Shown in pieces: positions 37,584 to 41,278 of a stretch of 56,357 nucleotides of DNA (position 1 is its first letter; the number at the start of each line of letters is the position of its first letter). Location of the stretch: the NCBI GenBank assembly GCA_963827755.1, contig CAWHCQ010000030.1, positions 1 through 56,357 on the forward strand. Reading direction: 5' to 3'. The position numbers and the translations under genes were made by a program. The DNA is from an uncultured Gammaproteobacteria bacterium. Its GTDB lineage: Bacteria; Pseudomonadota; Gammaproteobacteria; UBA9214. The notes under the pieces were generated by a model that saw nothing but the letters and a program-made list of their open reading frames with translations, did not search any database and had not been told where the DNA came from.

Positions 37584-38615
37584 ATGCTTCTAAAAAGCTT
37601 TAATGCAGTTTTTCTGCTCCTTCTGATGGCGCTGCCTTCAGCCTGCAAGTTGTCGATGGCAAAACCGACACCGGCAAATTATGCGGCAAACCCGGATACC
37701 CAGGTATTTATCGGGGAGATGGTTGCCCGCCACGGCTTCAACAGGACGGAACTGGTCAAGCTGTTCAGTCAGGCACAGCGCCGCGATGACATCCTCGTGT
37801 TGATGAGTAAACCGGCCGAGAAACGGCTGCGCTGGTTTGAATATCGAAAAATATTCCTCACGCAGGACCGCATTGAAGGGGGTGCCGCCTTCTGGAAAAA
37901 ACATGTCAAAATACTTGACCGGGCCGCGGCAAGCTTCGGCGTGGACCCGCAAATCATTGTTGCCATCATCGGGGTGGAAACCCGCTACGGCAAGATTACC
38001 GGCAGGCACCGGGTTCTGGACGCCCTCTCCACCCTGGCCTTCGACTACCCGCCGCGCAGCAAGTTTTTCCGCAAGGAACTCGAGCAATACCTGCTTCTCT
38101 GGCGGGAAGAAGACATTGATTTAGTCGGCACCAGGGGCTCTTATGCTGGCGCCATGGGCTATGGCCAGTTCATCCCGAGCAGCTACAGGGCCTACTCCGT
38201 GGACTTCGATCTCGACGGAAAGCGTGATTTATGGAACAGCCCGGATGATATTATCGGCAGCGTCGCCAATTATTTCCGGGTACACGGCTGGGAGCCTGGC
38301 GGACCGGTTGCCATACCCGCCAGCGTCAGCGGCGAAAAACACCAGGCAATCCTCGACCTGGGTTACAAACCCGGCACCATGCTGGGTATAATGCGCCGGG
38401 AGGGGATAATACCTGTCAAATCATTGCCCGACAGCCTGATCGGCGCATTGCTGTCATTTGAACAACAGGATGGCCCGGAATACTGGATTGGATTCAATAA
38501 TTTTTATGTAATAACCCGTTACAATCACAGCCCGCTTTATGCCATGGCGGTATACCAACTGAGTGAGAAAATTCGAGAAGCATATGAACAGAATCCACAG
38601 AATCTGTATGACTGA
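37584..38615 (+). CDS. mltB: Lytic murein transglycosylase B
   Basis: [26 protein letters not shown] and [18 protein letters not shown]. Confidence 0.95.
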
Positions 38616-41278
38616 CCCGTTACGAGCCGGGCACAAGGCCTTCACCCGAACAGTTTGGCTGTTTTCGGGTATTGCAGTTGCAGCGGCCCTGTTTACAGGC
38701 TGCTCATTACTCGACCAGGACAGCCCTGATGCATTGATGCCTCCCGAAGTGATTGACGTCAGCAATGTACCAAACGCCACACCCGAGCCCCTGCCTTTAA
38801 GCAAGTATGGAAACCCGACGTCCTATGTCGTCGCCGGCAAACGCTATTACACCATGCCTGCCAGCACCGGCTACAAGGAAACCGGCATAGCCTCCTGGTA
38901 TGGAACAGAGTCCCAGGGAAAGCGCACGTCCAGTGGTGAGGTATACGATAACTACGGCATGACGGCGGCACATCGCACCTTGCCGTTACCGAGCTTCGTA
39001 CAGGTCACCAACAAGCAGAACGGACGCTCGGTCATCGTCAAGATCAATGATCGTGGACCGTTCCACAATAATCGCCTGATCGAATTGTCCTACGTCGCCG
39101 CAGTCAAACTGGGCATTGTTGGCTACGGCACCGGTCTTGTTGAAGTAACCTCTATTAACCCCGATGACTACAAACAGGAACCGGGGCAGATCCTGCGTGA
39201 GGCAAGCAAAGACCTGTATCTGCAGGCAGGTGCATTCCGGGTAAGGAAGAACGCAGAACGCCAGCGCGCCGACATCGTGGCAAACGGCCTCGGACCGGCC
39301 AGCATCATCGAACCCTCCTTGACAAGCAGCCTGTACGCCGTACAGGTTGGCCCGTTCAAGGACGCCGCCGCGGCAGAAAAGGTTGCCAGCGCCCTCAAGC
39401 CAATGGGTATCAATGCCATAACCCACTACGAAGGAGATACTGCGGGGATAGCCGGCGAAGACCGTGTTGCCATGCAGACAGGCACAGCAAAACCCCGGCC
39501 TGCAAGCGTCGAAACTGAAACCGTGGCCATGGAAACCGGCACGGCGGAACCCCGGGCCGACGATGCAGGGACAAGCAAGTGGAAGTTCTGGCAATGGTTA
39601 CCGGGATTGCTGAAACCCGCTGCCAGCGTGCCCGCCGATGCGGCAATGGAAACAACTGTCGCTGCGGCTGCTAAAGCAATACCCGAGAGCAGCATGCCTG
39701 CGGAAACAACGGCGAACAGGATGACTGCGGCTGAGGAACCGGCCCCTGAAAGCAGCGAACCCGAAGTCGTGGCCATGACAACGGACACGGCCGAACCCGT
39801 GGGCCGAGGCCGGAAAGAGCAAGTGGAAGTTCTGGCAATGGCGGCCGGCAAAGACTGAGCCAGCAACCGCTGCGCCCGCTGCGGCAATGGAAACAAGCGT
39901 CGCAGCGGCTGCCAAGGCAGTACCCGAAAGCAGCATGCCCGCGGAAACAACCGCGAACAGGATGACTGCGGCTGCGGAACCGGCAGCTGAAAGCAGCGAA
40001 CCCGAAGTCGTGGCCATGACAACGGACACGGCCGAACCCGTGGCCGGGGCCGAGGCCGGAAAGAGCAAGTGGAAGTTCTGGCAATGGCGGCCGGCAAAGA
40101 CTGAGCCAGCAACCACTGCCACCGCCGCAACGACAATGGATACAGTAACGGCAACCGCGGAAACAGAAGCCGAGGTCGGCATGCCTGCCGGGCCAGCAAC
40201 GAACCTGGTTACCGAGGCTGCGGAATCAATACCCGAAAGCAGCGAAACCGAGGTCGTGGCAATGACAACGGACACAGCCGAACCCGCGGGCCGAGGCCGC
40301 GGACAGAGCAAGTGGAAGTTCTGGCAATGGCGGCCGGCAAAGGCTAAACCGGCAACCACAATGGACACAATGACTGCGGCCGCAGAAGCAGAACCCGAGG
40401 CCGGTCAAGCGGAAGTCGCGGCCATGGAAACAGTCGCAGCGCAACCTGCGCCAGCACCCGTGGCCCGCAAGGCTAAAGCCGTGGCCATGGCGCCAACGCC
40501 GTCTGCACCGCAGGATATGTCAGCGGTGTATATGCAAACAGGTGCCTTCCGCCTGCGTGAGAATGCAGAGCGTTTACGTCCCAGTGTCGAGGCCCTGGCA
40601 CCCGGCGCCTTCAAGGTCATCCAGACCAGCGGAGCACGGACACTCTACAAGATCGAAATCGGCCCGCTTGCGGGTACCGCGGAAGCCTTGCGCGTCAGGC
40701 GTGAACTCAAGGCAGTCGGCATCAACCCGAAAATCGTGGATAGCCCTGCCGGCGACAGCATGATGGCCTCAGCACAAACGTACAGGGCTCAACCGCTACG
40801 CTCTGTTGAGAAACCTGCTGCACCTGTCGAAAAACCTGCAACCCCTGCCAGGGAAACGGTTGCCGCGAAGCCGGTAGAATACAAATACGCCACACCGGAA
40901 CCTGCAAAGCCGTCTAAACGCCCCGCCGTTAGCGCAGCGGCGAAGCCGATGGAGCAGGTGCGTGCAACCATTCCGGTCGCCCGCCCGGAACCGGCACCGG
41001 CACCCGTTCGGCGCGGCAAGAAATCGCTCTACCAGCAGGCAGGCGCCTTCGCTCGCAGCAACAATGCAACGCGTCTGCGCACGAAGATAGTCGACAAGAC
41101 GCACGAGCCAACCGAAATCGTACAGGAACCAACCGAACTGCCGGCCAGGGGCCTGGTAAATCTGCACAAGGTGCAGGTGGGTCCATTGCAGAACAAAACC
41201 GAAGCGATGGAAGTCAAACGGGCCCTGATTCCACTAGGTGTCACTGACAGCTTCCCCGTATATCGCGAGAAGAAATAG
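38608..41278 (+). CDS. rlpA: RlpA-family septal lipoprotein, greatly expanded (DPBB + 3 SPOR + W-rich repeats), split by a frameshift near 39800
   Basis: Lipobox [32 protein letters not shown]; three SPOR domains. ORFs 38563-39858 and 39887-41278 join across one indel inside a tandem repeat. Confidence 0.85.
39520..40390 (+). repeat. Intragenic tandem repeat, ~243-246-nt period, four SKWKFWQW units
   Basis: agcaagtggaagttctggcaatgg at 39574, 39818, 40064 and 40307. Confidence 0.9.

Follow-up and report, generated by a model that had tools for sequence, protein, structure and literature searches.

The window analysed here is a 56,357-nucleotide stretch of DNA from an uncultured gammaproteobacterium (contig CAWHCQ010000030.1 of assembly GCA_963827755.1). 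Its rlpA gene, at positions 38584..41278 of the forward strand, codes for an RlpA orthologue of unusual size, in which three maintained SPOR domains and a maintained tryptophan-rich motif are combined on an acidic tether predicted to be disordered. The interval between mltB and dacA is very probably occupied by this one gene, the only RlpA of the organism. The best overall explanation, to which we assign a rough probability of 0.55, is that of an enlarged single RlpA that binds multivalently through its SPOR domains and whose Trp-rich motifs act as contacts to an anionic surface. The window belongs to a metagenome-assembled genome (termed G000 below; 52 contigs, completeness 92%, contamination 5%), and the sequencing runs that hold its sequence are sediment and marine sediment metagenomes.

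Identification and domain organization of the giant RlpA

According to NCBIfam annotation the genes follow each other in the order mrdA, rodA, mltB, rlpA, dacA and D-amino-acid transaminase, so that rlpA occupies the conserved position of its family, beside mltB and dacA and after mrdA and rodA. The NCBIfam model for RlpA (TIGR00413) matches with 135 bits for a cut-off of 82.15, whereas the equivalog model built for Escherichia coli (NF007953) gives 135.5, below its cut-off of 201. Two large open reading frames (ORFs) cover the plus strand between 38563 and 41278, namely 38563..39858 (431 residues) and 39887..41278 (463 residues), and lie in different frames; the second frame, open as early as 39779/39803, contains the second copy of the motif upstream of its own first ATG. 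Pfam assigns DPBB_1 and one SPOR domain to the first piece and a further two SPOR stretches to the second. Three relatives found in sequence databases, P0004 (853 residues), P0005 (824 residues) and P0007 (800 residues), located on contigs of 17.8–28 kb and sharing 56%, 54% and 46% identity, respectively, with the C-terminal piece, carry DPBB, repeats and SPOR in one ORF. The preliminary description had read the two frames as a single gene of about 890 codons while leaving open that they might prove to be separate; the single open frame of the three relatives bears out the former reading, with approximately 899 codons once a five-nucleotide gap is filled. The start proposed at that time, position 38608, has to be moved upstream, as the relatives begin at the ATG at 38584 (MNRIHRIC...).

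The gene product starts with a putative signal peptide (38584..38703), in which a basic and then a hydrophobic segment precede the sequence LFTG-C, with the Cys codon at 38701–38703 and a Ser in position +2. It was read by eye with a pattern that we take to be that of a lipobox, and the same N-terminus is found in P0004 and P0005. The DPBB_1 domain (PF03330), typical of RlpA lytic transglycosylases, covers residues 106–194 (38878..39144) with 80 bits against a cut-off of 28.8. Among solved structures, that of PA4485 (4avr_A, E = 6e-23) comes nearest in sequence, and the alignment with the latter shows the NDRGPF and TSSGE stretches to be present. The SPOR domains lie C-terminal to DPBB, the first one beginning only about 20 residues past it. 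SPOR1 (39205..39417) opens with LYLQAGAF and is followed by an Ala/Thr/Glu/Pro-rich repeat region (39418..40520), SPOR2 (40523..40738, VYMQTGAF), a basic Pro/Ala/Lys-rich linker (40739..41020) that holds a 21-nucleotide tandem repeat of 2.1 copies (40803–40847), and SPOR3 (41021..41275, LYQQAGAF). When scanned singly, SPOR1, SPOR2 and SPOR3 score 52.5, 38.7 and 22.2 bits, all above the gathering score of 21 of PF05036, SPOR3 only marginally so. At E ≤ 0.001 Pfam detects three SPOR stretches in P0004, two in P0005 and one in P0007.

All members show the Q-x-G-A-F sequence of strand β1 in their SPOR1, SPOR2 and SPOR3 domains. In PMC6895207, residues Q270, A273 and F274 of Pseudomonas aeruginosa RlpA are described as glycan contacts, and stem peptides as blocking the binding. 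An AlphaFold2 model of P0004, calculated from a shallow alignment of seven rows and with a mean predicted local distance difference test (pLDDT) score of 40, shows all three SPOR domains, SPOR3 included, folded as ribonucleoprotein-like β-α-β-β-α-β units with pLDDT values of 64–81. Its best structural match is the SPOR domain of P. aeruginosa RlpA (6i09_A) with a TM-score of 0.81, the table of matches not stating which of the SPOR domains was aligned; CwlC and PA4485 are matched as well. By contrast with the SPOR domains, the repeats (residues 284–603) and the second linker (residues 678–771) are modelled without secondary structure, at pLDDT values of about 25.

Within the repeat region, Tandem Repeats Finder delimits an array at 39681–40359 with a period of 246 nucleotides, 2.8 copies and 83% matches. 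Four copies of the motif SKWKFWQW, or close variants of it, start with SKWKFW at positions 39574, 39818, 40064 and 40307. The first (39574..39603), a variant with Leu, is in the frame of the upstream ORF, and the second (39818..39847), third (40064..40093) and fourth (40307..40336) follow in the region downstream of the frame break, the second in the frame of the downstream ORF. A scan of the rest of the genome with W[KRMQ][FYW]W retrieved nothing comparable, only scattered single chance matches. The region as a whole is acidic, with an isoelectric point (pI) of 4.1–4.8, and the charges alternate along it: spacers carry a net charge of –8 to –15 and motifs one of +2 to +5. Between SPOR2 and SPOR3, the linker is basic (pI 10–11; about 10 in the window). 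A rough scaling estimate for the repeat region gives a coil of about 16 nm and a contour length of about 115 nm. The domain scan thus reproduces the anatomy given in the preliminary description, that is a lipobox (by eye), DPBB, three SPOR domains and four SKWKFWQW motifs at the mltB-rlpA-dacA position.

G000 and G012, a genome from another species of the same genus, contain one DPBB_1 match each, and the giant form is consequently the sole RlpA of either genome. Because no other DPBB_1 gene exists in the two, the giant form replaces the ordinary RlpA and is not an addition to it.

Conservation of the motif and origin of the SPOR domains

The motif was compared in four complete members (the window gene read through its frame break, P0004, P0005 and P0007), each of which has exactly four copies, and in G012, which has at least three. 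Over the 19 instances, Ser, Lys and Trp occupy the first three positions without exception, followed by Lys (17) or Met (2), Phe (18) or Val (1), an invariant Trp, Gln (15) or Lys (4), Trp (10), Lys (7) or Arg (2), Arg (14), Leu (4) or Ala (1), and an invariant Pro. The pattern S-K-W-x-[FV]-W-x-x-x-P is therefore essentially invariant (19/19), while the spacers drift in sequence and range between 40 and 86 residues in length. A form particular to the first unit, flanks included, is conserved in four lineages. The doubt raised earlier, that the motif might not be conserved in relatives, is thereby removed. The proposal that the repeats of about 81 residues are spacers holds for the acidic part, whose period is about 82 residues, and understates the motif, the part of the disordered region that is conserved best. 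It is highly improbable that the repeats serve as an entropic spacer only, or arise from assembly, with the motif devoid of a function of its own. Such an explanation would fit the low complexity and predicted disorder of the region and the tendency of short-read contigs to collapse or break at the repeat; it is already largely refuted by the occurrence of the four-motif layout in four independent assemblies and by a motif that stays constant while the spacers change in sequence and length.

In a tree of DPBB domains the five giant forms make up one clade (support 100/100) on a long stem of 0.5 changes per column, within which G000 pairs with P0007 (95/99). P0007 is without SPOR1 and has repeats in that place instead; since it pairs with G000 in this tree, the absence is best read as a loss. 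In the SPOR tree, SPOR1, SPOR2 and SPOR3 each form a clade (97/97, 100/100 and 100/99), with identities of 74–84% within a type and of 35–44% between types. Because each type forms its own clade, the triplication is older than the split of the giant-form lineages, and each copy has been maintained. The giant architecture accordingly has a single origin, and both the motif and each SPOR type are under purifying selection. In the SPOR tree the ordinary SPOR domains join SPOR2 at a support of only 66/72, too low to single out an ancestral type.

SPOR3 together with part of the linker matches SPOR proteins other than RlpA in related genomes (G008:C5:47280-47654, G018:C5:77557-77889 and G016:C24:894-1235, with E-values from 7e-8 to 4e-4). 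Based on these matches, SPOR3 may come from another SPOR gene and not from a duplication within rlpA.

The frame break within the repeat region

The distances from motif to motif amount to 244, 246 and 243 nucleotides. Comparison of the units shows that unit 1 is devoid of five bases, GGCCG, present in unit 2; the gap lies at about 39800 (39797..39812), just upstream of the second motif copy. Unit 3 has the same GGCCG gap, offset further on by two additional bases, so that its frame is kept. Past the break, the reading frame is shifted by +1 with respect to that before it. In G012 two contigs end within the repeat and thereby interrupt the gene, and both pieces remain open up to these ends (one of 476 residues at its 3' end, the other of 361 residues at its 5' end). 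The window also differs at this place from contigs of two further public sequencing runs: the X1 contig skips 241 nucleotides and the X2 contig exchanges 497 nucleotides for 19, and by simple arithmetic both changes restore a single frame. Three of the 17 genes compared between G000 and G012 are broken in the former, namely rlpA, ftsI and eno, the latter two by an insertion of one nucleotide each. Since the relatives are in a single frame, the contigs of two other runs are in frame, and ftsI and eno are broken too, the break at about 39800 is probably an error of an assembly prone to insertions and deletions.

Several points weigh against this conclusion and, with it, against the reading of the gene as a single unit. 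Positions 39858–39954 are covered by none of the four runs, and neither reads nor contigs of the same strain extend over 39803–39954, which leaves the five-nucleotide gap itself uncovered; X1 may be the source sample and would then not be independent; and the X1 and X2 contigs, taken from Logan, collapse repeat units and do not fix the copy number. Moreover, the gap is not of the homopolymer type. It sits between short direct repeats of GGCCG, possibly a true site of slippage, and unit 3 shows that a deletion of this kind did occur and was later compensated. If the break were real in the strain, the product would be an RlpA of 424 residues in which lipobox, DPBB and SPOR1 are followed by a tail with a single motif, leaving the downstream frame of 463 codons as a dead remnant without a signal peptide. 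We consider this improbable. The GGCCG repeats flanking the gap make slippage plausible, as does the history of unit 3, the upstream ORF on its own amounts to a complete canonical RlpA, and the junction is covered by none of the four runs compared; on the other hand, the downstream part shows neither further stops nor decay over 1.4 kb, its SPOR2 and SPOR3 are conserved to the same degree as in the relatives, all of which are in frame, and ftsI and eno, both essential, are likewise broken in the G000 assembly. A programmed +1 frameshift on the sequence CGG-AAA-G was also considered and rejected, every relative having a single frame.

In ftsI (contig C31 of G000, about 39329–40909, minus strand) the additional nucleotide, as compared with G012, falls in the loop after ...VTFLRQ. 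The gene on contig C16 (about 57000–58400), presumably that of enolase as judged from its sequence signatures, has its insertion near codon 100. A small membrane-anchored SPOR protein on contig C12 (103189–103378, minus strand) is affected as well, its SPOR domain being divided between two overlapping frames, probably through another assembly indel. Matches to ftsB are split in two in the relatives G060 (contig C11) and G008 (contig C4); frame breaks in small division genes are thus not confined to G000. Through indel errors of this kind in the metagenome-assembled genome G000, the giant rlpA most likely takes on the appearance of two ORFs or of a pseudogene, and short-read assemblies break or collapse at the same repeat.

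Distribution of the giant form

A query with the C-terminal piece matched 17 of the 18 other genomes of the genus, and G012 alone was matched beyond one stretch of the size of a SPOR domain. Ten ordinary RlpA proteins were retrieved from these loci, in open frames of 287–329 residues with one SPOR domain each. The next closest relative as judged from FtsL and FtsB (85% identity), G052, has an ordinary RlpA in the mltB-rlpA-dacA slot. A profile of the repeat unit matched two of the 54 genomes of the family, G000 and G012, and three of 1,835,955,588 representative proteins, one of the three through its acidic part only.

Further searches were negative: contigs of species genomes gave no match with P0002 as query and, with P0004, only the contig of G012 itself; metagenome contigs of the Joint Genome Institute gave no match with P0004; and a search of the ESM Atlas with the repeat region gave no usable match. 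A degenerate 21-mer derived from the motif retrieved 33 loci from metagenome contigs, none of them a family member, as judged from the absence of a Pro in register and of a SPOR-like motif, and 32 of the 33 contain a single W-x-[FV]-W match. In database records the giant proteins are either unnamed or entered as 'RlpA family/SPOR domain-containing, partial' only. Taken together, the giant RlpA is very rare and is confined to a small clade of uncultured sediment Gammaproteobacteria.

Comparison with other RlpA and SPOR proteins

The giant protein shares with the RlpA of P. aeruginosa and E. coli a putative lipobox, the succession of DPBB_1 and SPOR, the mltB-rlpA-dacA position, a TIGR00413 score above cut-off and a SPOR fold matching 6i09_A. 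It differs from these proteins, which consist of one DPBB and one SPOR domain, in being three times longer and in having two more SPOR domains and an acidic region of about 320 residues with four Trp-rich motifs. The ordinary RlpA proteins of the genus (287–329 residues, including that of G052) lie at the same locus and align throughout the DPBB region, but each contains a single SPOR domain and a linker of about 30 residues and is without the motif, and the giant forms stand on a long separate branch.

Other long RlpA proteins exist (470–669 residues, for example in records named Lysobacter sp. and Luteimonas aquatica) and resemble the giant form in having DPBB and SPOR domains and long linkers of low complexity. 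The Trp motif occurs in none of the 19 non-giant matches. The domain scan covered the 15 of them with a SPOR entry in Pfam, that is without P0014, P0026, P0029 and P0030, and also without the giant-form fragment P0009; no protein scanned has three SPOR domains. A single SPOR stretch is seen in fourteen of the 15 and two in P0017, so that duplication of SPOR in RlpA occurs elsewhere, while P0012 has two DPBB stretches. To the preliminary description, which set the gene against a typical RlpA of one DPBB and one SPOR domain, it has to be added that neither multiple SPOR domains nor a long linker is peculiar to this gene.

FtsN, DamX and DedD, like the giant RlpA, carry SPOR on a disordered tether, accompanied in FtsN by a short motif whose consensus is fitted by the first unit. 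Unlike these inner-membrane bitopic proteins with one SPOR domain, the giant form is a putative lipoprotein enzyme of the outer membrane, and the majority of its units are without the invariant Leu of the FtsN motif. LpoA and LpoB, lipoproteins of the outer membrane, reach synthases of the inner membrane by means of disordered linkers; the likeness is an analogy of design only, an outer-membrane anchor with a long flexible region able to cross the peptidoglycan, and no sequence relation was sought. By domain content, model score and synteny the protein belongs to the RlpA family; it differs from every RlpA found in its length, its three SPOR domains and its motif. The remark that no described equivalent was known stands in so far as full-text literature searches and parts of PMC6895207, 10.1101/2022.07.01.498525, 10.1101/2023.05.12.540521 and PMC7939390 returned neither an RlpA with several SPOR domains nor a motif of this kind.

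Possible function of the tether and ligands of the motif

The protein would be an outer-membrane-anchored lytic transglycosylase that is directed by its SPOR domains to septal glycan free of stem peptides ('denuded' glycan). Three SPOR domains in one chain would allow multivalent binding of high avidity, or cross-linking, of denuded septal glycan, and the stretch of about 320 residues predicted to be disordered could separate SPOR2 and SPOR3 from the catalytic head by approximately 15 nm or more. As for the four cationic-aromatic motifs, they may act as weak 'sticker' contacts to an anionic surface of the envelope. We put at about even odds that the motif binds such an anionic surface rather than a protein.

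Hevein-type chitin binders possess a Ser/Trp/Trp sugar-binding face, which the Ser-x-Trp-x-Phe of the motif resembles. The aromatic residues could stack on sugars, and Lys and Arg could pair with the lactyl carboxylates of N-acetylmuramic acid, which, according to PMC6895207, are also used by the basic patch of the SPOR domain. Because the tether is fixed to peptidoglycan at either end, because of the hevein-like face and because of the possible pairing of Lys and Arg with carboxylates, denuded glycan is slightly favoured as the specific ligand, as a tentative assignment by analogy, with a membrane interface coming next. In addition, the invariant Ser and Pro, and a first unit conserved separately, suggest from sequence that the ligand may be more specific than a generic membrane interface.

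It appears doubtful that the Trp/Lys motifs insert at a membrane interface, be it the inner membrane or the inner leaflet of the outer membrane, where four weak anchors and three SPOR domains would stitch membrane to septal peptidoglycan. Motifs with a net charge of +2 to +5 and three to four aromatic residues in eight positions, surrounded by acidic spacers, fit a membrane as well as they fit glycan, and they resemble the Trp/Arg-rich membrane-active peptides; the disordered stretch, by the size estimate given above, is long enough to reach either membrane. A generic anchor, however, should tolerate shuffling of aromatic and basic residues, whereas their order and the Ser and Pro are fixed in 19/19 instances, and the motif drawn as a helix from its sequence is not amphipathic. 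A precursor of Trp-rich peptides, in which cationic cores would be separated by acidic spacers, was set aside in view of the conserved folded wall-binding domains on both sides of the region.

Several observations count against the preferred explanation, that of an enlarged RlpA with multivalent SPOR binding and motifs as anionic-surface contacts. The lineages compared are closely related, which lessens the weight of the 19/19 invariance; the glycan proposal leans on the hevein analogy; and in the full-length model of P0004 the motif makes no contact with any domain, the DPBB domain itself being poorly modelled (pLDDT of about 40).

Resemblance of the first unit to the FtsN E motif

Alternatively, the motifs may serve to dock a periplasmic protein. 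Taken furthest, this proposal has the first unit mimic the essential E motif of FtsN, through which the lytic enzyme would talk to the FtsWI-FtsQLB synthase. We hold docking of either kind to be unlikely, although some of the evidence is in its favour. Strict conservation by position is typical of short linear motifs, and the first unit keeps its own flanks in four lineages. An E motif consensus of (WYLF)X(YFL)hXXL with an invariant Leu is given in the preprint 10.1101/2023.05.12.540521; the first unit fits it in G000, G012 and P0004, while P0005 has a Val at the (YFL) position. The FtsN proteins of the genus contain the invariant sequence PRFDFYTLLPEM, and in an hhalign alignment this motif and the first unit are in register (P = 0.012).

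The probability reported by hhalign is only 3.6% with the first units, and P rises to 0.21 with all units, so that the similarity does not reach significance. Arg or Ala is found in 15 of the 19 instances where FtsN always has Leu (Leu in 4/19), and P0007 has no unit of the Leu type. Moreover, the published consensus has 2313 matches in the open frames of G000, and a tighter pattern that matches only FtsN and RlpA was defined after both had been seen and is not a fair test. G000 also has an intact FtsN of its own, and the giant RlpA is not a bitopic inner-membrane carrier, as it has a putative lipoprotein signal peptide and no FtsN-like N-terminus. A complex prediction of FtsI residues 1–245, FtsL and FtsB with the first unit gave a score of 0.00 for a mark of 0.32; the fold of the partner was itself uncertain in this prediction, which speaks neither way. 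The likeness of the first unit to FtsN is thus a lead, a weak resemblance at the level of sequence, and not a finding. It would be a long shot to combine both ideas, unit 1 acting as an FtsN-like E motif that signals to, or competes at, FtsWI-FtsQLB and units 2–4 as hevein-like binders of denuded glycan, in which case the four motifs would represent a novel class of short linear motif in the periplasm, carried by an outer-membrane enzyme, and one tether would couple septal cutting, sensing and synthesis.

Other features of the window

The window ends in an rRNA operon on the minus strand (52477–56228), comprising 5S rRNA (52477–52592), 23S rRNA (52756–55841) and tRNA-Ala (56153–56228); the 16S rRNA gene would lie past the end of the contig. 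The 23S match extends over 3086 nucleotides for a model of 2925 positions and may carry an insertion of about 160 nucleotides. Antisense ORFs of 256–257 residues at 39426–40368 (minus strand) mirror the periodicity of the GC-rich repeat and are a by-product of it.

Biological significance

RlpA and the SPOR proteins are central to the splitting of the Gram-negative cell wall, and how degradation, the sensing of denuded glycan and synthesis are coupled is still an open question. The clade described here amounts to a natural experiment, in which the place of the only RlpA has been taken by a form that combines three SPOR domains with a disordered tether carrying an invariant 10-residue motif four times over. 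Should this motif bind glycan, a membrane or a protein of the divisome, it would represent a compact new targeting or regulatory peptide.

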